Virus record (IMG/VR): IMGVR_UViG_2529293219_000028
DNA from: a virus
Lineage: Duplodnaviria > Heunggongvirae > Uroviricota > Caudoviricetes
DNA length: 38,658 nt
Reading direction: 5' to 3' (one strand)
The notes under the pieces were generated by a model. That model searched no databases. It saw only the letters and a list, made by a program, of their open reading frames with translations, and had not been told where the DNA came from. The position numbers were made by a program, and so were the translations under genes. Positions 4,527 through 24,145 of this stretch are shown piece after piece. The stretch's first letter is position 1, and each line of letters begins with the position of its first letter.

Positions 4527-5087
4527 TTATTTTTCCGAAACGCTCGCAGGATAATAACGATAAAGGGTTGAAAGGCCGATATCAAAAATAAGTGCCACCT
4601 GTCTTCGACTGACACCCCCGGCCAGTAAACGCCCGACCTGCTCGTATTGTTCCTGCGTGAGACGACGGGGTCTGCCGCCGGTTCGTCCCCTTTCACGGGC
4701 AGCTGCAAGACCAGCCCGTGTCCGTTCGACAATTAATTCACGCTCCATTTCTGCCAGCGCACCCATTATGTGAAAAAAGAAGCGCCCCATGGGGGTTGAC
4801 GTATCAATGTTGTCAGTAAGACTACGAAAATTTATCCCCTGTTGCTGTAATTCATCTGTCAGCGCAACAAGGTGGCGCATACTGCGCCCCAGCCTGTCCA
4901 GTTTCCAGACCATCAGTGTGTCACCGGGTTTTAGTTTCTTCAGTGCCCGCTTCAGTCCCGGCCGCTGTGTCGTTTTACCACTCATTTTATCTTCAAAAAT
5001 CTGCTCACATCCTGCACATTCCAGCGCATTTCTTTGTAAACCTGTGTTCTGGTCATTTGTTGATACGCGTATATAGCCAATCAGCAT
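4527..5087 (-). CDS. gin: Gin/Hin/Cin-family serine DNA invertase
   Basis: MLIGYIRVSTNDQNTGLQRNALECAGCEQIFEDK...MGRFFFHIMGALAEMERELIVERT is near-identical in pattern to Mu Gin; lies 56 bp from the left boundary of the invertible segment. Confidence 0.9.
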   Translation of the reverse strand: MLIGYIRVSTNDQNTGLQRNALECAGCEQIFEDKMSGKTTQRPGLKRALKKLKPGDTLMVWKLDRLGRSMRHLVALTDELQQQGINFRSLTDNIDTSTPMGRFFFHIMGALAEMERELIVERTRAGLAAARERGRTGGRPRRLTQEQYEQVGRLLAGGVSRRQVALIFDIGLSTLYRYYPASVSEK

Positions 5088-5141
5088 GTATTTACCTTCC
5101 TTAAAAAGAGGTGGAAAGGCCTTTTAAAGCAGATATACGGC

Positions 5142-5167
5142 ATCCCTGAAACCTTCGGTTTACGGGA
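5142..5167. other. Candidate gix-like crossover site (left); near-palindrome TCCCTGAAACC-TTCG-GTTTACGGGA
   Basis: Palindromic core AAACC..GGTTT exactly where the inverted-repeat homology begins, just upstream of gin. Confidence 0.55.
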
Positions 5168-5335
5168 TACTGTAAACAGGGCCGCGAATGCCCTGCCATC
5201 GAACGGAGCGGCTGTTGCAGCGAATAAACTCGCCACTCCAAGAAATATTAATGGTGTCCCATTTGACGGAACGCAGGATATAAATATTACATCGGGGATG
5301 ACGCAGTCTGTGGCTGACTCACGTTATGTTCAAAG
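5157..5335. repeat. Left inverted repeat of the invertible tail-fibre segment (about 180 bp, roughly 80% identical to the reverse complement of 6351-6529)
   Basis: Manual alignment; both copies start at GGTTTACGGGA and share runs such as CCAAGAAATATTAATGGTGT and TTTGACGGAACGC. Confidence 0.8.
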
Positions 5336-5513
5336 CATTCGAAGAGGTTCAAGGTCAACGATTGGAATGCAATATAATATTTTTGAGGTTCCTGACGGAT
5401 GCGTACTTACAGGGCTTGATGTCGCTGGTGATGGTAATGCAACGGTAACCGCATATTATCGACCTGTTCAGTTTCTGATAGATGGTTCGTGGAAAACAGC
5501 TTCCAGCGCATAA
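5157..5513 (+). CDS. Alternative tail-fibre C-terminal cassette (S'v-like), startless and currently not joined to the fibre gene
   Basis: Frame is open from 5064 with no in-frame start; encodes ...GLRDTVNRAANALPSNGAAVAANKLATPRNINGVPFDGTQDINITSGMTQS..., paralogous to residues about 205-260 of the minus-strand fibre, then diverges (ORF-track 5298..5513). Confidence 0.7.
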   Translation, partial: GLRDTVNRAANALPSNGAAVAANKLATPRNINGVPFDGTQDINITSGMTQSVADSRYVQSIRRGSRSTIGMQYNIFEVPDGCVLTGLDVAGDGNATVTAYYRPVQFLIDGSWKTASSA

Positions 5514-5592
5514 AAGTGCAGTAGTTCAAAAAACAGATTATCTGAATAAATATATGATGATTTTGTCTTTTCAACAAAAACAAGGTGAAATA

Positions 5593-6114
5593 ATGGAGCT
5601 TATTAACGTAAAACGATATTACCCGGAACACAAACCCTATGGTGAGGATGTTCAGTATTTCCAGAGTGAGGACGGAAGGGATTTTTATGAATCTATCCCG
5701 CTTTTCACAAAGAAATACAAACTCTGTATTTCGCCTGTAACGGGTATTATCTGCTCTGTTGCTGAAGATGTCTCTGCTTTATATCCGGCAGGTTTTACTG
5801 TTGTTGAAGTGGACGAACTGCCGGAAGGTGTGAATATTGACGGTAACTGGCAGTTTTCTGATGGCCTGATATCAAAGGTGCCGGTAAACTGGAAGACGGT
5901 TGCTGAAAAGCGCCGCTCATCGCTGCTCCAGGAAGCCAACGAAACTGTGGATGACTGGAAAACGGAATTAAAACTGGACATGATTAGCGATGAAAATAAA
6001 TTACAGCTGACGCGCTGGATGGCGTATATCCGACAGCTTAAAGAAATGCACTTTAATGATATTGCCAGTGAGGGGCATTACCAGGCGATTCCCTGGCCGG
6101 AAAAACCGGAATAA
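5593..6114 (+). CDS. Tail fibre assembly (chaperone) protein, Mu U/U'-like
   Basis: MELINVKRYYPEHKPYGEDV... with the AAGGTG RBS before the ATG at 5593 chosen as start; ORF-track frame 5482..6114; identity called from position and general Tfa-like character, not a recognised motif. Confidence 0.7.
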   Translation: MELINVKRYYPEHKPYGEDVQYFQSEDGRDFYESIPLFTKKYKLCISPVTGIICSVAEDVSALYPAGFTVVEVDELPEGVNIDGNWQFSDGLISKVPVNWKTVAEKRRSSLLQEANETVDDWKTELKLDMISDENKLQLTRWMAYIRQLKEMHFNDIASEGHYQAIPWPEKPE

Positions 6115-6120
6115 TTCAGA

Positions 6121-6146
6121 GGGTGCATTCAGCACCCTTTTCTGTG
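6121..6146. terminator. Bidirectional hairpin between the convergent fibre and chaperone genes
   Basis: GGGTGC-ATTCA-GCACCC stem-loop followed by TTTTCT. Confidence 0.5.
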
Positions 6147-6148
6147 GT

Positions 6149-7060
6149 TTACACTGAACTTACCGTTCTCCAGGCATTATTAATATAAATCTGAACCGGG
6201 CGATAATAGACCCCACCGATATTGTCCGCAGACCGGGAGCCGGTTTCCTGCACGTTAATTCCGGAAAGCATACAACCGGAAGGTGCGCTGTAATTCCATG
6301 ACATTTCATTGCCTCCGGGTGAATGATAGCTCTGTGCTCCAAGCTGAACATTCTGTACATACCGGCCATCTGCGGTTGACTGCGTCATTCCTGACGTGAT
6401 GTTGATATCCAGCGTTCCGTCAAAAGGAACACCATTAATATTTCTTGGGGTGGCGAGTCTGTTTGCTGCCACGGCGGTTCCACCCGATGGCAGGGCATCA
6501 GCAGCCTTATTTACCGTTTCCCGTAAACCAACGTTATCGATAAAAGCGCCTTTATCCGGAATGTCTGCGCCGTTCTGCTCCCTGCGCAGGTAACGGTTAT
6601 CACCTTCGCTTTTGCTGTAAACATCCAGATTATTACGGGCGGTTCCCGCATTCTCCAGGTCGGCAAGGTTCTGATCCTTCGCCAGAGCATTAACGTCACC
6701 GGGACCAAGACTGTTTTTTGTGGCAAGCGCCCCAAGACCAAGATAACCACGGGCAAGACGCTGGGCTTCCGCACCGGCATCAGCAATTTCTTTCAGGTTG
6801 TTTTTCCGGGAAAAGGCATTCGCAGCGATAATGGCTTTAATGGACAGCGTAAGCTGGTTTAACTGCGCCTTATCCGGCTGAATACTGGCTTCAGCCAGAA
6901 TATTCAGCAGTTCGGCCTGGAGAATATTCAGCCAGTCCTGACCAATCCAGCTGATACCTTTTTGTCCGTCACCTTCGGTAAACCAGGTGGTGGTATTACT
7001 CTGCGCCGGTGCCAGCGCAGGCATATTCGCCACGCCGGAATTATTATCAACATGGAACAT
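6149..7060 (-). CDS. Tail fibre protein (constant part plus the currently expressed variable tip)
   Basis: Start placed at the internal Met at 7060, whose ATG overlaps the upstream gene's stop by 1 nt (track start 7114 would overlap by 55 nt); C-terminal part runs through the right inverted repeat. Confidence 0.8.
   Translation of the reverse strand: MFHVDNNSGVANMPALAPAQSNTTTWFTEGDGQKGISWIGQDWLNILQAELLNILAEASIQPDKAQLNQLTLSIKAIIAANAFSRKNNLKEIADAGAEAQRLARGYLGLGALATKNSLGPGDVNALAKDQNLADLENAGTARNNLDVYSKSEGDNRYLRREQNGADIPDKGAFIDNVGLRETVNKAADALPSGGTAVAANRLATPRNINGVPFDGTLDINITSGMTQSTADGRYVQNVQLGAQSYHSPGGNEMSWNYSAPSGCMLSGINVQETGSRSADNIGGVYYRPVQIYINNAWRTVSSV
6351..6529. repeat. Right inverted repeat of the invertible segment, inside the tail fibre gene
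   Basis: Reverse complement aligns with 5157-5335. Confidence 0.8.
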
Positions 7061-16982: not shown

Positions 16983-17543
16983 TTACAGTTCCTCCGGCGG
17001 TTCGACCGCCGTTGTCGTGTTCCCCGGCAAATCAATATGTGCCTCAAACGGCGGCGTACCGGGCGGCTCCACAAAGGTTTCGTAATGACGCAGGAAGTCG
17101 TCCAGCGAGCTGGTATCGGTCAGCGGTGCGATCATTTCCTCGCAGGAGAAATAAAGCGCATACATCACCGCACCACTGTCCGCCTGGGTTTCGGTGTAAC
17201 CGTTGACCGCCTTTTCAAAGTAAAGCGGTGAGGTTTTTTCTGTTCTGAAGCCGTTAAGCACGGCAATCAGCCGGGCCACAATCTGATACAGTCCGGGACG
17301 GCTGGCCTCACGCCCGTTGAGCATGTCGCCGATGACGTAGAACACCCAGTGACTGACCAGGCGACCACGGGTACGGCCTTCACCGGCACCCAGCCAGGCA
17401 ACGTAGATCGCCGGGGCGTTAATCAGCATGGTGCGCAGTACGCTGTCGCTCCAGTCGCCGGGATGCGTGTCAACAGACACCAGTTCATTCCCGAAATACT
17501 CACGGATACGGGCGATGTATGCCTGTTCGGTTTCCGTAATCAT
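16983..17543 (-). CDS. Mu gp37-like head-tail joining protein
   Basis: 186 aa; synteny. Confidence 0.65.
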   Translation of the reverse strand: MITETEQAYIARIREYFGNELVSVDTHPGDWSDSVLRTMLINAPAIYVAWLGAGEGRTRGRLVSHWVFYVIGDMLNGREASRPGLYQIVARLIAVLNGFRTEKTSPLYFEKAVNGYTETQADSGAVMYALYFSCEEMIAPLTDTSSLDDFLRHYETFVEPPGTPPFEAHIDLPGNTTTAVEPPEEL

Positions 17544-17959
17544 ATGAAGCCCTTCTGGTTGCGCCCGAATACCGCTGCATCAGACTGAACCTGTGGTAAA
17601 TCCCCGGATTCAGGGGCCGCACCGTTCGTATCCACACCGACCGGCACATTGCCGTTCATGACATCTTTCAGCCAGGCCAGCGCTTCACGGTAACGGTCAC
17701 GCGCCTGATCGGAGGCTCGCTGATCGCACAGGTAATAAAAGGCAATCGCGCAACAGTGCTGAACAAGAACGGCCGGAATAACCTCCAGCGGCAACGTGTA
17801 ACGGGCGGACAGATAGCTGTCGATAAGGGCTGACGCATCTGTCAGCGCCCGGTTCAGCTTGCGCGTGTCCGGCTCATCCGAACGGGGCACAGCCAGTAAC
17901 GGCCTGAGCAAATCCTCGCGGTAACGCGCCCGCATATCGGTTTCAGTGGCGTAATTCAT
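17540..17959 (-). CDS. Mu gp36-like head-tail joining protein
   Basis: 139 aa; synteny. Confidence 0.65.
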   Translation of the reverse strand: MNYATETDMRARYREDLLRPLLAVPRSDEPDTRKLNRALTDASALIDSYLSARYTLPLEVIPAVLVQHCCAIAFYYLCDQRASDQARDRYREALAWLKDVMNGNVPVGVDTNGAAPESGDLPQVQSDAAVFGRNQKGFI

Positions 17960-18354
17960 GCACGGGCCTGTTCCGCTTTGTTACCGGTCTTTTTCCGGGG
18001 AGCATCCTGTCCGGCTTCGGCTTCGGCTTCGGCTTCGGCTTCGGCTTCGGCTTCGGCTTCGGCTTCGGCTTCGGCTAAATCTGTACCGGCCACTGCATGA
18101 ACCACACCCGCCACGCTCCCCGCATCATCAGCAGACGTCTGTAGTATTCGCACAGTGAGGCATGGCTCCTCCTCCAGTCGGGCAAGCTGCTCCGGGGTGA
18201 CCTCAACCTGCTGACGTCCACGCGTGAACAGGAACCCCGCACGACGAAACGCCGAACGACTGCAACGCACTTCTGCCAGCACCGTGACAGAATTGTCACC
18301 ACTGACCTGAAGACCTGAATCATCTGTTGCTGCCACAGTGTGATGTTCATTCAT
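17956..18354 (-). CDS. Hypothetical head-region protein with an internal (Glu-Ala)n tract
   Basis: 132 aa ORF directly downstream of the major head gene; contains about 11 EA dipeptides encoded by the hexanucleotide repeat. Confidence 0.6.
   Translation of the reverse strand: MNEHHTVAATDDSGLQVSGDNSVTVLAEVRCSRSAFRRAGFLFTRGRQQVEVTPEQLARLEEEPCLTVRILQTSADDAGSVAGVVHAVAGTDLAEAEAEAEAEAEAEAEAEAEAGQDAPRKKTGNKAEQARA
18013..18076. repeat. Perfect tandem hexanucleotide repeat (GGCTTC)10 plus a partial unit
   Basis: Direct reading: ggcttc repeated from 18013 to 18072, then ggct. Confidence 0.95.
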
Positions 18355-18397
18355 ATTTGCCCTCCGCAGGGGCCGGGCCGTAAGCCCGGCTCACCGT

Positions 18398-19345
18398 TTA
18401 CAGATAATCCGCGACAACCAGCTCCAGCTTACCCTTCATCTCGTTAGAGACGGTTGCGTTTCCGTCTGCGAACAGTTCACGCTCCAGCAGCTGCACCGCC
18501 TGTTTTTCCAGCGAGGTGGGGACAACAATATGGGTGGGTTTAATGCCGAGTTTGCGGCCACCGTCAGCGGTAAATTCGCGCATGGCTGACCAGCCGTGCC
18601 ACAGTGCATCCAGCGTCAGCGGTGACTGCATCATGTAGGCCATCTGCCAGAAGCCGTAGCCCACATTGCGACGGGCGGATGCACCAAACACAAATTCGTT
18701 ATCGGTGAATGCGCGACCTTCATCGACTTTGGTCTGGGCAACCAGTTCAGCCTTACGGCGATCCTGATAAATCAGCGGTTTTACCGCGCGGGAGCAGTCA
18801 AGCAGATACCAGGCCGGACCGCTGTAATCAGCCTGTGCGCCGACAGAGCCGGTTTTTGCCACAAACATATTGCTGACCATCTGCGCATCCCCGGAGCCAT
18901 CCACTTTGGGGTAAACCGGATGTTCGGTATCAAAGAAGTTCTGACCGTCATAGCAGGCCGCACTGATCCCGTCACGCAGGGCAGCAAAGACCAGCTCATC
19001 CGGTTGTACCGCCGCAGCGCGCCCCATCTCCTGGAACAACGGGGAATAAATACCGAGGTTGTCGTCTTCGAAGTCATCGCGGCTAATGGCGACAGTGCCT
19101 TCAAAAGTTTTGTTCACGATGGCATAGCCATAGGCTTTCATCTTCTCGATGACGCGGGAGCCGATCCACTCACGGAACTGCGGGAACTGCCCCAGCCAGC
19201 CGTAGGTGTTGGATTTCGATGTGGAGGGCACGGTCATCGCAATTTTTTTATACTGCGACGGGGCCATGGACATCCCGGCCTGAAAATCAGAACGGTAGCC
19301 CGTCATCAGGGCTGTGATCATCGCCGGTGTAATCGGGGTAGGCAT
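18398..19345 (-). CDS. Major head (capsid) protein, Mu T-like
   Basis: 315 aa directly downstream of the protease/scaffold gene. Confidence 0.85.
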   Translation of the reverse strand: MPTPITPAMITALMTGYRSDFQAGMSMAPSQYKKIAMTVPSTSKSNTYGWLGQFPQFREWIGSRVIEKMKAYGYAIVNKTFEGTVAISRDDFEDDNLGIYSPLFQEMGRAAAVQPDELVFAALRDGISAACYDGQNFFDTEHPVYPKVDGSGDAQMVSNMFVAKTGSVGAQADYSGPAWYLLDCSRAVKPLIYQDRRKAELVAQTKVDEGRAFTDNEFVFGASARRNVGYGFWQMAYMMQSPLTLDALWHGWSAMREFTADGGRKLGIKPTHIVVPTSLEKQAVQLLERELFADGNATVSNEMKGKLELVVADYL

Positions 19346-20469
19346 TATTGCATTTCCTCTTTCATTTTCAGGAACTCGGCTTCGGTTTTACCCAGCAGTT
19401 TGGCGGCCGCGATATCTTCAGCCGACAGCGCAGCGGTGGCAGTCTTTTTATCCGGCACGGTCACGGTGTCGGTCTGAAGAGAGGTCAGGGCCGCAACCGG
19501 CTGGCGGGCGTCAAGCTGTGCAGAAAGTGCCGCAACGCCAATCTGCCCGCCCAGTTGTTCCAGATAGCCGCGTTCGCTTTTGAAGATGCGCCCTTCGGAT
19601 TCAGCCTTGTCCAGCACCTGCTCCAGCGTGGTGCTGCCGTGCTGCGCCGACAGCGCAACGTATTCGGTACGCAGGGCGTTATACGTTTCAACGGGCACGT
19701 ATTTCGTCAGATCAATAATGCCGCCAGCCGGTGTGCCTTTTGCGGTTTCCAGCTCTGCCGACAGACTGGCGACCTGTGTTTTCAGGTTGTCGTGTGCATC
19801 CGCACGGGTTTTGATCCCGGTGAGGGCAGACAGCGCCGCCGTGCCCAGCTCCGGCGTAAATTCGTCACCGTCAGCCACGGTCAGACCGAGCGCCGTCAGC
19901 AACTGGCGTAATTGCTCATTCATGGAGGTATCCTTTAAAGGAGGGTTTAAGGCGTTATAAAGGTCATCCGCCGACAGTGCGGCGACAGGATTCATGCCGG
20001 TCAGACCGGGGTCACCGGTAATAGCCAGCATCCGAAGTTCGACAGGTTCGCCGGTGCTCTCGTCATAGCCAATCACCGGTGAAAACCAGGGGAATTCGTT
20101 ATTACGCAGATGTTCAAGGGCCGGAGGGTTCCACTTCGGGCGCACCTCGAAACCTCGCTCTTCACTGAAGCGAAAATTCTCCGGTGAGGCCATCACAAAA
20201 CCGGCAGCCGGTGCCGGATGTCCCTCAATCAGGGTCTGGTGGTTGTAGTCAATTTTCACCGGCTGATTGAGCGCCACAACACGGGAGACCATGCGCTCAA
20301 CGGCTGCATGGTTGATCAGCCAGCCTTCCGCCGGTTTTTCCGGGCGACCGTCACGGGCCTTTACCCGACCGGCTGGCATGATCTGACACCAGTCACCGTC
20401 CCCGTCTGCGGACAGGCTGATGGCATTCAGAATGGCATAAGCAAGTTTGGGCGTGTTTTTCGTCTTCAT
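19345..20469 (-). CDS. Head maturation protease / scaffold protein, Mu I-like
   Basis: 374 aa; synteny; in-frame internal ATG at 19923 preceded by AAGGA. Confidence 0.8.
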   Translation of the reverse strand: MKTKNTPKLAYAILNAISLSADGDGDWCQIMPAGRVKARDGRPEKPAEGWLINHAAVERMVSRVVALNQPVKIDYNHQTLIEGHPAPAAGFVMASPENFRFSEERGFEVRPKWNPPALEHLRNNEFPWFSPVIGYDESTGEPVELRMLAITGDPGLTGMNPVAALSADDLYNALNPPLKDTSMNEQLRQLLTALGLTVADGDEFTPELGTAALSALTGIKTRADAHDNLKTQVASLSAELETAKGTPAGGIIDLTKYVPVETYNALRTEYVALSAQHGSTTLEQVLDKAESEGRIFKSERGYLEQLGGQIGVAALSAQLDARQPVAALTSLQTDTVTVPDKKTATAALSAEDIAAAKLLGKTEAEFLKMKEEMQ

Positions 20470-21119: not shown

Positions 21120-21237
21120 GTTGCCTCCTTAAAACTATCTGATTAAAATAAATACAGGCCGGTGTACTCTTAACTGGTAAAGCGGCATAAACCCTCAGGG
21201 GTCATATGTTTATGCGGGTTCGACCCCCGTCACCGGC

Positions 21238-22563
21238 TTACAATTTACCTTCCAGTAGTTCCAGCTTTCCGCCCTCTATTGCTTTTTCAATATCAAATTT
21301 ATTTACCCGGTAAGCATTAATTACCACATCCAGCTTATCCGGCTGGCGCTTCACACCATAAGGCGCATTGACGGCAATCTTTGCCGTTCCGTCACGGGTT
21401 TCAGTGATGTAAAGCAGGTTCTGATGGACATGATCCCACAGCACGGCATCGGGGGCAGCCAGCATGGCGGGAAGCTGCGCGAAATCCTCCGGCGTCAGGG
21501 CGATACCGTCATTCTGATGTTTCACACTGTCCGCATGGAGCACATTTTTACCGCTCATCGCCAGCAGGCGGGCCGGTGGCGTTCCTGTCCGGCTTTCCAC
21601 TGCCTGCGCAATACTTTCGGTCATAAAGCCCAGCGTGCGGATATCGTGACCACCGCGCCGGGTTTTCATGATATTTTTTGCCCAGATGCGGAACGCCAGC
21701 TGCCGCTCCGGGCTGTTGTTCATCTCCTGAACCACCATTTCCCGTAACGCCGGGCTTTTCACCTCGATCAGTTTACGGATCAGCGCCTGGTCTGTGCCGA
21801 ACGCCGCCGAACCGGGGTTATATGACCAGCCCACATCCGGTGTCATGGTTCTGGTGCCATCTGAATATGTGGTCACCGGCATTTCTCTGACTTCTCCGGT
21901 CTGTTTATCCACGCCAGCCTCAACATTGCGGGTGGAGAGATGATCCTCACCGGATGAAACGGATAACCCCATTGCATCCAGACGGGCCTGAGACAATGGC
22001 CGCACACGGCAGCGGCAGTTCCAGCCATTGGGTGGGTAGTGTGTTTTCCAGAACGGATCATCATAGCGGAATACCAGACCGTTAAGGGTGGAATGCGACG
22101 GGCGGGTACGGCTGTCCATGACCGCCACATACTGCCAGAACGGATGCGTGTCCGTGTTGTTCATCATCTGCGTGTAACGCCCGGCATTGTAAGCCACGCG
22201 GGTGTTCACGTTGTAAATCAGCGCCAGACGGCGGGGACTGCCCAGCTGTACTTCTTCTGCGTTACCGGCGCTGTCCACCACAATCTGCTTCCCCCACCAT
22301 CCCAGCTTTTGCAGGCGGGGTGTCAGTGTGCGGATAAATGCTTTCTGTGAAATCCCCTCATCAATGGCCCGTTGCACTTCCGCCTGTAGTGTGGTCAGTA
22401 CGTCCAGGCGTGCCGCTTTTGCCGCCGTGAACGATCGGGCATGAACATCTGCGTCTGTTTCGAACCAGTTCCAGCTGATATGCGCCCCTTTGGCGCGGAA
22501 GTATGCCACCGCCTCTTTTGAGGGAAGGGTGGCGGCATAACCTAAATCAATCCCCTGTGCCAT
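21238..22563 (-). CDS. Head morphogenesis protein, Mu F (gp30)-like
   Basis: 441 aa with RTRPSH...NGWNCRCR motif typical of the Mu F family. Confidence 0.8.
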   Translation of the reverse strand: MAQGIDLGYAATLPSKEAVAYFRAKGAHISWNWFETDADVHARSFTAAKAARLDVLTTLQAEVQRAIDEGISQKAFIRTLTPRLQKLGWWGKQIVVDSAGNAEEVQLGSPRRLALIYNVNTRVAYNAGRYTQMMNNTDTHPFWQYVAVMDSRTRPSHSTLNGLVFRYDDPFWKTHYPPNGWNCRCRVRPLSQARLDAMGLSVSSGEDHLSTRNVEAGVDKQTGEVREMPVTTYSDGTRTMTPDVGWSYNPGSAAFGTDQALIRKLIEVKSPALREMVVQEMNNSPERQLAFRIWAKNIMKTRRGGHDIRTLGFMTESIAQAVESRTGTPPARLLAMSGKNVLHADSVKHQNDGIALTPEDFAQLPAMLAAPDAVLWDHVHQNLLYITETRDGTAKIAVNAPYGVKRQPDKLDVVINAYRVNKFDIEKAIEGGKLELLEGKL

Positions 22564-24145
22564 CCAGCATCCCCTTCATTTCCGCAGCAAACATGGCATC
22601 ACTGAGCAGCGTCATCAGGCGGGAATCATCCATTTCACGGTAAAGGGCAGGCAGGTCTGCCAGCGCATCCGCCAGCCCCCGCGTTCTGATGGCATCAATG
22701 ACCGGCTCCAGCAGCGGGTCGATAGCGTCCTGTAACCGGCGGGCAGGCACCGCATCCCCCATATCGTCCAGTTCATCACGGGGGCTGCTTTTCGCTTCCG
22801 GCAGTCGGGCTGACAGCGCCGTCTGCTCTGTCTTCTCCTGTTTTTCCGGTGGCATCTCTTTGTCTGTCTGAGCAGGTTCATTGCCACTCTGACGGACACG
22901 GAAGATGGCTTCACCGGGGGCAGGCTGTGGAATACCGGTCTGGTCCCGTACCCAGGGATCAGGAATATCCATCCCCGTACTGAGCTGCATCACCGCACTG
23001 GTGATTTTGGTGATATCCCCCGGCTCTTTTGTCTGGAAACAGATACGCGGCAGGCGACGGATATCTATGGCGTGGGCGGTGTTCAGGGCATACAGCGGAT
23101 ACACCAGATCGCGGTTCAGCGTGGCGGCCAGCTGACGTAAATCAGAATCCCTGATTTCCCGGCGCACCTCGTTATGCACCTCACCCAGTGAGCGCGCGCC
23201 TTTGTCTCCGGCTTCCGTGGTCAGCGTGCCGCCGAGGATAGCTTTGGAGATGGAACGCTCCCCCCACGAAATCATGGTTTCAAACGGATCGGCCTGACCG
23301 TTCGCGGCTACCTGAAACTCCAGCGACATCCCGGCCGGGATGATCCCGCCTGTACGTCGCCCGATATCCATCACCGCCCGCATCAGGGCGCTTTTCTGCT
23401 CCGATGTTGCCCCGGACGGGTATTTACCGACCTTCATCGGCAGGCCGTACACCTCCAGAAATTCAGCCAGATCGCGCACGGAATAGTTTTTGAAAATGAA
23501 CGGCCAGATAAGCGTTCTGACAAGCCCCGTCGCACCACCGTAACCGGTGCGTGAACGTGACTGATGCACTACCCAGCCAAAGGGCTGAAACGCCACCCCG
23601 GCATGGCTGCCGTCACGCAGCCGCAGTTCGCTCAAATCATCCGGGTTAAGGCAGAAATGCCCGCTGTCACGCCAGCGGATGGCGCGGATGATGTGCATTT
23701 TACCGAGCATCCCGTGCTCAATCTCCATGCAGGAATAGCCCTTCAGGATGGCATCCGTGGCGTCAAACAGCATGGCATCAAACCAGTCGGCGGAATGCAG
23801 ATATTCGTCGAGCATTTCCGCGTCCTTTTTCTCATTCGCGCTGGCGTTCGGTGGCGGCTCAATACTCCAGGGCACGCTCTGAATGGCAAGACGTCGCTTG
23901 CCCAGCTCTGCAAAAAGGTGGGTATCCTTTTCTTCAATGTCAGCCGCCAGATCGGACTGGGCAATCAGATCGCCACGTTCAGCCCCGCGAAGGCACTGCG
24001 CCGCCCGGTTCGGGGTGATACCCGAGGCCGGATGTTCAATATAACGGCTGGCAATCTGCGGAATATCCAGCACGGCACTCTGCATCTCCGGGTCAAAGGA
24101 GAAAGGTTTTCCGTCAAGATCAATTATGCGTCCCACTACCAGCAC
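22547..24145 (-). CDS. Portal protein (Mu gp29-like)
   Basis: 532 aa between the large terminase and F genes. Confidence 0.8.
   Translation of the reverse strand: MLVVGRIIDLDGKPFSFDPEMQSAVLDIPQIASRYIEHPASGITPNRAAQCLRGAERGDLIAQSDLAADIEEKDTHLFAELGKRRLAIQSVPWSIEPPPNASANEKKDAEMLDEYLHSADWFDAMLFDATDAILKGYSCMEIEHGMLGKMHIIRAIRWRDSGHFCLNPDDLSELRLRDGSHAGVAFQPFGWVVHQSRSRTGYGGATGLVRTLIWPFIFKNYSVRDLAEFLEVYGLPMKVGKYPSGATSEQKSALMRAVMDIGRRTGGIIPAGMSLEFQVAANGQADPFETMISWGERSISKAILGGTLTTEAGDKGARSLGEVHNEVRREIRDSDLRQLAATLNRDLVYPLYALNTAHAIDIRRLPRICFQTKEPGDITKITSAVMQLSTGMDIPDPWVRDQTGIPQPAPGEAIFRVRQSGNEPAQTDKEMPPEKQEKTEQTALSARLPEAKSSPRDELDDMGDAVPARRLQDAIDPLLEPVIDAIRTRGLADALADLPALYREMDDSRLMTLLSDAMFAAEMKGMLDGTGD

Follow-up and report, generated by a model that had tools for sequence, protein, structure and literature searches.

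A hexanucleotide repeat of variable copy number in the gp35-like gene of Sp18-type Mu-like prophages of Escherichia coli

Coding hexanucleotide variable-number tandem repeats (VNTRs) are known in Escherichia coli O157 and are used for multiple-locus VNTR analysis (MLVA). The hexanucleotide MLVA loci of O157:H7 (for example O157-10, O157-3 and O157-9) are perfect 6-bp arrays of about 5 to 20 or more copies. During serial passage, 6-bp VNTRs of O157:H7 gain or lose whole units at rates of 4.4e-5 to 1.8e-3 per generation, and long alleles change faster (PMC3777172). A repeat of the same kind is described here from a stretch of 38,658 nucleotides (IMG/VR record IMGVR_UViG_2529293219_000028), referred to in full as the window. 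The window corresponds to a Mu-like prophage of the Sp18 type, carried by E. coli and mostly by its Shiga toxin-producing lineages. The tract, (GGCTTC)10, lies in a small open reading frame (ORF) on the minus strand that is homologous to gene 35 of phage Mu and is designated gp35-like. Like the MLVA loci, it is a perfect 6-bp array that differs between near-identical isolates by whole units, as expected of slipped-strand mispairing. Behaviour like that of the O157:H7 6-bp VNTRs would be expected at the gp35-like locus. Unlike the MLVA loci, the gp35-like locus is part of a mobile Mu-like prophage, found at differing chromosomal sites and in only 228 complete E. coli genomes out of 5,426, and it therefore cannot be a universal typing locus. 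Intragenic simple-sequence repeats that slip and so mutate at a locally raised rate are likewise a feature of the phase-variable contingency loci of Haemophilus, Neisseria and Campylobacter. However, contingency loci switch genes ON or OFF by frameshift or promoter spacing, whereas (GCC-GAA)n varies in length only. Full-text literature searches, which did not extend to the original O157 locus catalogues, returned no description of this locus as a VNTR.

Tandem Repeats Finder identified the tract as a period-6 array of 10.8 copies with 100% matches, zero indels and a score of 130; all other arrays of the 38.7-kb window scored 44 or less. Ten full GGCTTC units occupy positions 18013..18072, preceded by a C at 18012 and followed by GGCT at 18073..18076. 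A three-unit probe allowing up to two mismatches gave nine matches, all within the tract, compared to 0.00 expected from 100 dinucleotide-preserving shuffles, and with this probe no further copy of the motif was found in the window. The sense strand reads TTA (GCC GAA)10 GCC GGA and encodes L-A(EA)10-G, of which A(EA)10G forms residues 94-115 of the 132-amino-acid (aa) ORF and carries a net charge of -10. A preliminary description of this DNA had claimed a perfect (GGCTTC)10 repeat, a copy number beyond chance and an encoded (Glu-Ala)n tract, and all three claims agree with these results. Plus-strand ORFs that cross the tract (RLRL... and ASAS...) are by-products of the repeat and were dismissed because it is the minus-strand frame that holds the Pfam and PHROG matches and the synteny.

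The copy number of the tract is highly variable. A census was made by megablast of the 399-bp gene against the 5,426 complete genomes, with match spans converted to units and the conversion checked by sequence at eight loci. The gene was found in 229 records of the 228 genomes, and the spans step by 6 nt. Each length from 1 through 16 units occurs in an even sample of 54 records, nine of which have single-unit alleles, and E. coli strain F1 E4 has a 20-unit allele. The 40 best matches, all 100% identical outside the tract, have 5, 6, 10, 14, 15, 16 or 20 units. All alleles differ by whole 6-nt units and retain the frame and the stop codon, and alleles of 1 to 20 units are all located in prophages with complete late operons. 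In every allele sequenced (six checked at the codon level) the codons are GCC GAA followed by GCC GGA, the shortest allele being GCC GAA GCC GGA. The use of identical codons in all alleles indicates that units are duplicated and lost at the DNA level, rather than selected for an EA peptide. All close protein homologues from E. coli, Shigella and metagenomes contain the tract at some length, and proteins with a single AE (P0009 type) are members of a 150-member cluster. Some close homologues have derived units (AG, VE, SE, TE, AK, AA) and expanded AG runs similar to a compound microsatellite. The expansion and contraction foreseen in the preliminary description are thus visible in the complete E. 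coli genomes, whose alleles range from 1 to 20 units, with every change in frame, as it had also foreseen. It would have been contradicted by an invariant copy number together with absence of the tract from homologues; the copy number is anything but invariant, and only the distant homologues lack the tract.

The contrast in rate emerges when the DNA flanking the tract is compared over 17.8 kb on its left side and 20 kb on its right. The window and locus L002 have 10 and 20 units, respectively, and differ by 2 substitutions in 37.8 kb. The window and locus L003 have 10 and 5 units and differ by 3 substitutions in 37.8 kb. Loci L007 (strain 113) and L008 (strain 131), which share an insertion site, have 14 and 13 units and 0 substitutions. 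Differences of 1, 5 or 10 units alongside 0-3 flank substitutions indicate that the tract mutates much faster than the surrounding DNA. Both strands of the repeat fold worse than shuffled sequences (z about +2) and neither forms a stable hairpin. Hairpin-driven slippage is ruled out on this basis, and plain out-of-register re-pairing of the strands suffices.

The protein that contains the tract belongs to the gp35/HI1506 family. The 132-aa ORF matches Pfam PF17891 (FluMu_N) at residues 36-72 with 35.1 bits (cut-off 25.8; E 1.1e-8) and phrog_3622, of the PHROG category unknown function, at 1.6e-78. Gene 35 of Mu, D108 and SfMu was matched by tblastn at an equal map position, with 56% identity over the core of the N-terminal domain (N-domain). 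The sole solved relative is Haemophilus influenzae HI1506 (FluMu gp35), for which there is a nuclear magnetic resonance (NMR) structure (PDB 2OUT, E 1.6e-4). A phmmer search with the 93-residue N-terminal part gave 14 matches with E up to 1e-3. A profile-seeded word search returned mostly low-complexity candidates and added few relatives, and the family picture is drawn from about 15 diverse sequences. The distant relatives compared are those of Mu (136 aa), Salmonella and E. coli Mu-type phages, Edwardsiella (P0085) and environmental sources (P0096, P0106, P0108, P0110, P0112, P0114). Their layout is an N-domain, a low-complexity linker of 20-35 residues and a conserved C-terminal domain (C-domain) of ~50 residues with the pattern DLNxRIRxAV..NPxHFT..GxPKVxAVSxxLG...QIxAAL. 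The NMR paper on HI1506 reportedly describes two folded domains joined by an unstructured linker of ~30 residues, with basic patches on both domains and weak similarity to RNA-binding folds.

The Sp18-type protein is like Mu gp35 and HI1506 in having a homologous N-domain and in being encoded between gpT and gp36 by a gene that overlaps the start of gp36. A low-complexity segment follows the N-domain in both, with LAEAGG in Mu and L(AE)nAG in the Sp18-type protein. However, Mu, HI1506 and the other relatives have a helical C-domain of ~50 residues and no tandem repeat, whereas the Sp18-type protein has (AE)n and a basic tail of 17-20 residues. The architecture of N-domain, flexible linker and three-helix C-domain is not found in the latter, in which 17 residues remain after the tract. 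The Sp18-type protein is thus, by sequence comparison, a truncated variant of the Mu gp35 / HI1506 family that has lost the C-domain. The segment before the tract (residues 76-93) corresponds to the inter-domain flexible linker of Mu gp35 / HI1506, and the tract itself aligns at the start of helix 1 of the C-domain, where Mu has LAEAGG. The shortest allele form, AEAG, resembles this LAEAGG of the Mu linker. None of the distant relatives from Mu, Salmonella, Edwardsiella and the environment contains an (AE)n run. Other layouts were seen among the sequences collected. P0109 and P0113 have two tandem FluMu_N-like domains, and P0111 has an N-domain followed by a coiled-coil-like Lys/Glu-rich tail in place of the C-domain. 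P0105 (789 aa), with six weakly matching stretches, looks repetitive and is possibly a spurious translation.

The N-domain has the conserved motif C-x-R-x3-RRAG-x2-F-x2-G, with C31, R33, R38, G46, L57 and L66 invariant in the alignment. In an AlphaFold2 model built on an 18-sequence alignment, the predicted local distance difference test score is ~90 at residues ~21-70 and below 50 at residues 79-132, where no secondary structure was assigned. The tract is therefore predicted to lie in a disordered tail between the N-domain and the 17-residue basic end, a location where changes in length should be easily tolerated. The preliminary description had called the EA stretch a linker. This holds in part: the C-terminal domain that is joined by the linker in Mu and HI1506 is missing, making the stretch part of a tail.

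The tract is a hypermutable in-frame hexanucleotide VNTR that, among the family members compared, is restricted to one lineage. It is probably driven by slippage and largely neutral, in a tail that is predicted to be disordered and tolerates it. It probably arose from an AEAG seed in the degenerate linker or C-domain remnant of a gp35-family protein. During replication, the nascent and template strands would re-pair out of register by whole 6-nt units, with occasional unequal recombination possible beside slipped-strand mispairing, and the copy number would drift up and down far quicker than point mutations build up. A unit of two codons leaves all alleles in frame and the downstream gp36 gene intact. 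The only effect on the product would be to lengthen or shorten an Ala-Glu polyanionic stretch of the disordered C-terminal tail, which is itself probably what remains of the flexible linker and of helix 1 of the C-domain in canonical gp35. Since 1 to at least 20 units are tolerated, variation in length is in all likelihood neutral or almost neutral. The near-continuous spread of 1-16 units, the frequent one-unit alleles, the codon purity and the absence of the tract from distant homologues favor mutation pressure over selection for length.

Several points weigh against this explanation. Weak selection, such as a ceiling near 20 units, might be masked by the broad spread of lengths, and a length-sensitive role of gp35 is conceivable. 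Slippage and unequal recombination are indistinguishable from sequence alone. Where long-read assemblies of a single clone differ by one unit, errors in the consensus may in principle contribute. Finally, the 5-, 6- and 10-unit alleles are each shared by 10-11 complete genomes of one lineage, which indicates that the rate is too low to randomise lengths within clones and that alleles persist in lineages.

The alternative that fares best is that (AE)n is a tunable functional spacer, acting as an adjustable entropic spacer or as an intramolecular nucleic-acid mimic that folds onto the basic N-domain core or the basic tail. Through slippage, the phages of a population would come to differ by degrees in gp35 activity, which would amount to bet-hedging over DNA handling or the completion of heads. 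The charge layout fits such a role, with an Arg-rich N-domain core (8 K+R), a tract of -10 and a tail of +3. The tract is also kept, at some length, in nearly all close homologues, and long pure arrays persist in apparently intact prophages. However, single-AE alleles are common, both in the even sample (9 of 54) and in the 150-member P0009-type cluster, and the near-continuous spread of 1-16 units has no favored value. In addition, the codon purity points to mutation pressure and not to peptide selection, and distant homologues manage without the tract. A tunable spacer is therefore possible but doubtful. A more specific version, in which (AE)n is a slippage-tunable intramolecular regulator of a morphogenetic protein that binds nucleic acid or the portal, and in which length sets the masking of the basic N-domain and tail, is unlikely. 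If it were correct, one lysogen would seed progeny with graded head-completion or DNA-retention properties, and a phage structural module would have in-frame "rheostat" variation, as opposed to the ON/OFF phase variation of bacteria.

It is less likely still that the gp35-like protein decorates the capsid surface and that the variable EA stretch alters the virion surface in an antigenic or adhesive manner, like Hoc. The position of the gene directly after the major capsid gene is consistent with this idea, since in JBD30, which has a Mu-like head, decoration protein gp39, a Soc-like beta-tadpole trimer, is encoded after capsid gene gp38 (PMC11445458). The gp35-like protein is set apart from JBD30 gp39 by the published description of the latter, not by direct comparison. 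A PDB fold search with the model gave HI1506 (2OUT) and Bacillus subtilis prophage YqbF (2HJQ) as top matches, both weak. No decoration or connector protein scored above noise in this search, in which the presence of the JBD30 chain in the library was not checked. YqbF, from the B. subtilis skin prophage, has a weak likeness in fold without shown sequence homology, and it lacks a tandem repeat. In the cryo-electron microscopy (cryo-EM) structure of Mu, the capsid was modelled from gp34 alone, with no cement proteins, and the neck was fully modelled with gp29, gp36 and gp37, while gp35 could not be resolved (PMC11915804). The suggestion in the preliminary description that the protein is a decoration protein is accordingly not supported, whereas it placed the small gene correctly, with the major head gene (Mu-like_gpT) on one side and head-tail joining genes (Phage_Mu_Gp36 and Gp37) on the other. 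An assembly or neck-associated role is plausible from this position and from the annotation of Mu gene 35, and the gp35-like protein may be regarded as morphogenetic, associated with head or neck. GenBank record AF083977.1 labels Mu gene 35 "head-to-tail connector complex protein". In the GenBank record Mu genes I, T, J, K and L bear the classical mutant letters of essential genes and gene 35 bears none, which is weakly consistent with an accessory role.

The repeat could also act as DNA or RNA, as a protein-binding array, a DNA structure or an mRNA element that sets gp36 translation, with coding being incidental. The tract is located 52 nt upstream of the ATGA-coupled gp36 start and near the physical center of the prophage. 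However, neither strand has a stable structure, both folding worse than shuffles, and the length varies 20-fold among intact prophages. The tract is also absent from Mu and relatives with the same gene order and coupling, and the motif has no second copy in the window. These observations make a DNA- or RNA-level element highly improbable.

The idea that a short repeat was inflated or collapsed during sequencing or assembly can be given hardly any credence, even though short-read assemblies do seem to break contigs at the repeat. Many "partial" database proteins stop at ...AGTD, ...TDLA or ...LAEA or within the run (P0130, from 156 contigs, P0139, P0140, P0142, P0133, P0001, P0061 and P0065). 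Exact protein look-up in a draft-dominated collection found alleles of 1, 2, 3, 4 and 5 units on 1, 22, 159, 265 and 606 contigs, respectively. The same look-up returned no allele of 6-10 units, although such alleles are present in complete genomes, indicating that copy numbers from draft assemblies are biased to short alleles and are unsuitable as a census. However, the 399-bp query is matched end to end, at 100% identity and with a span of 399 bp, in at least 13 complete E. coli genomes, which thus have the same 10 units. Other lengths recur in 10-11 genomes each, and alleles always differ by an exact multiple of 6 nt between flanks that match perfectly. The recurrence of the 10-unit length in complete genomes, and of other lengths in many, argues that the tract in the window is not an assembly artefact. 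A protein of a different kind, P0087 (154 aa), is a chimera: it is identical to the gp35-like protein over residues 1-41 and matches an unrelated Pfam family, PF10076, over the remainder, which suggests that a rearrangement or insertion truncated the gp35-like gene in one assembly. A phase-variable ON/OFF switch is ruled out, as the 6-nt unit is part of the coding sequence and every allele observed preserves the frame.

The tract reveals no new mechanism and is an ordinary kind of hypervariable repeat. It is nonetheless a fast-evolving marker in a Mu-like prophage of many lineages of Shiga toxin-producing E. coli (O157:H7, O26, O111). It separated prophage copies that are identical over 37.8 kb of flanks, and could add resolution in tracking carriers of the prophage and events of transposition or transfer. 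The tract also explains a recurrent contig break and the truncated "partial" gene calls, with drafts under-reporting long alleles. Ideas on the function of the gp35/HI1506 family are constrained by the finding that neither a 20-fold change in the length of the region after the N-domain nor loss of the C-domain is beyond what this region tolerates.

Table 1. Coordinates in the window of the repeat tract, the gp35-like ORF with its parts, and adjoining features.
Feature	Position	Strand	Details and basis
Hexanucleotide tandem repeat	18012..18076	minus-strand gene	plus strand = C(GGCTTC)10GGCT
gp35 / HI1506-family ORF, 132 aa	17956..18354	minus	RefSeq "HI1506-related protein"; homologue of Mu gene 35 by position and sequence
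Folded N-domain, residues ~23-75	18130..18288	minus	beta-hairpin, helix, strand; AlphaFold, alignment and Pfam
Low-complexity segment before the tract, residues 76-93, DDAGSVAGVVHAVAGTDL	18076..18129	minus	predicted disordered; aligned to the linkers of relatives, among them Mu and Edwardsiella
Basic C-terminal tail, residues 116-132, QDAPRKKTGNKAEQARA, net +3	17959..18009	minus	replaces the helical C-domain of ~50 residues
Shine-Dalgarno-like GGAGGG	18360..18365	minus	5 nt before the gp35-like ATG; plus strand ccctcc; RNA ...GCGGAGGGCAAAUAUG
ATGA overlap of gp35-like stop (TGA 17956-17958) and gp36 start	17956..17959	minus	sequence and ORF list
Phage_Mu_Gp36 (gp36 adaptor)	17540..17959	minus	Pfam; ATG at 17957-17959
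Mu-like_gpT major head subunit	18398..19345	minus	Pfam, E 6.6e-119
Mu-like_Pro	19345..20469	minus	Pfam

The gp35-like gene is embedded among Mu-like head genes (Table 1), and further neighboring minus-strand ORFs match Phage_Mu_Gp37, DUF2635 and tail sheath in Pfam. The ATGA overlap suggests translational coupling of the gp35-like ORF and gp36, and it is untouched by in-frame changes in tract length. The gp35-like ORF also contains a two-copy direct repeat, GACCTGAA x2 at 18304..18319, with a period that is not a multiple of three; no variation of this repeat was seen among the compared loci. Upstream, a GC-rich stem-loop at 18363..18404 on the minus strand (core GCCGGGC-UUACG-GCCCGGC, -23.6 kcal/mol, z -1.9) covers the gpT stop codon and ends just ahead of the gp35-like ribosome-binding site. 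A consensus scan found no intrinsic terminator between gpT and the gp35-like ORF, the hairpin having no U-run. In Mu, a terminator is predicted by TransTermHP at the matching position. To judge from its sequence and position, the stem-loop may attenuate or stabilise the transcript past the capsid gene. If it attenuates read-through, expression of the gp35-like gene would be below the level of the capsid protein.

The window is 100% identical over 25 kb to prophages in O157:H7 genomes, and it encodes a transposase, Gam, Mor, lysis, head and tail proteins, an invertible tail-fibre segment, com and mom. Sp18 has been judged an intact Mu-like prophage capable of transposition (PMC2669165, PMC7430833); neither of these papers mentions the tract. 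The chromosomal insertion site of the prophage differs among strains (loci L002, L003, L007-L009), as expected of a transposable phage. The sites include the tail genes of another prophage, a transaldolase-family gene by gldA and a position beside a fimbrial operon. The prophage is also found within Stx1a- and Stx2c-converting phages (LC727895.1 and LC727881.1), where it is annotated as "region of the inserted Bacteriophage Mu-like phage".

Other features of the prophage were recorded. An invertible-segment-like module lies at about 4527..7060 of the window (from L002 6572..9105), where a Gin-type recombinase gene adjoins opposed tail-fibre and tail-fibre-assembly genes; the annotation of a small ORF of this module varies among strains between frameshifted and intact. 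RefSeq annotates an 81-nt "tRNA-OTHER" at 23263..23343 of L002 and 23173..23253 of L003 (about 21158..21238 of the window, plus strand), flanked by the G-like virion morphogenesis gene and the F-like head morphogenesis gene and opposite the late-operon strand. ARAGORN detected no tRNA in the entire window, which leaves a false call or a tRNA-like element as readings of "tRNA-OTHER". Finally, several genomes have multiple matches to the gp35-like gene, up to 6 (three each in RM13322, OkiPb01685 and JNEC-KY176), and one match is on a plasmid. Multiple Mu-like copies in one genome could reveal divergence of tract length after replicative transposition.
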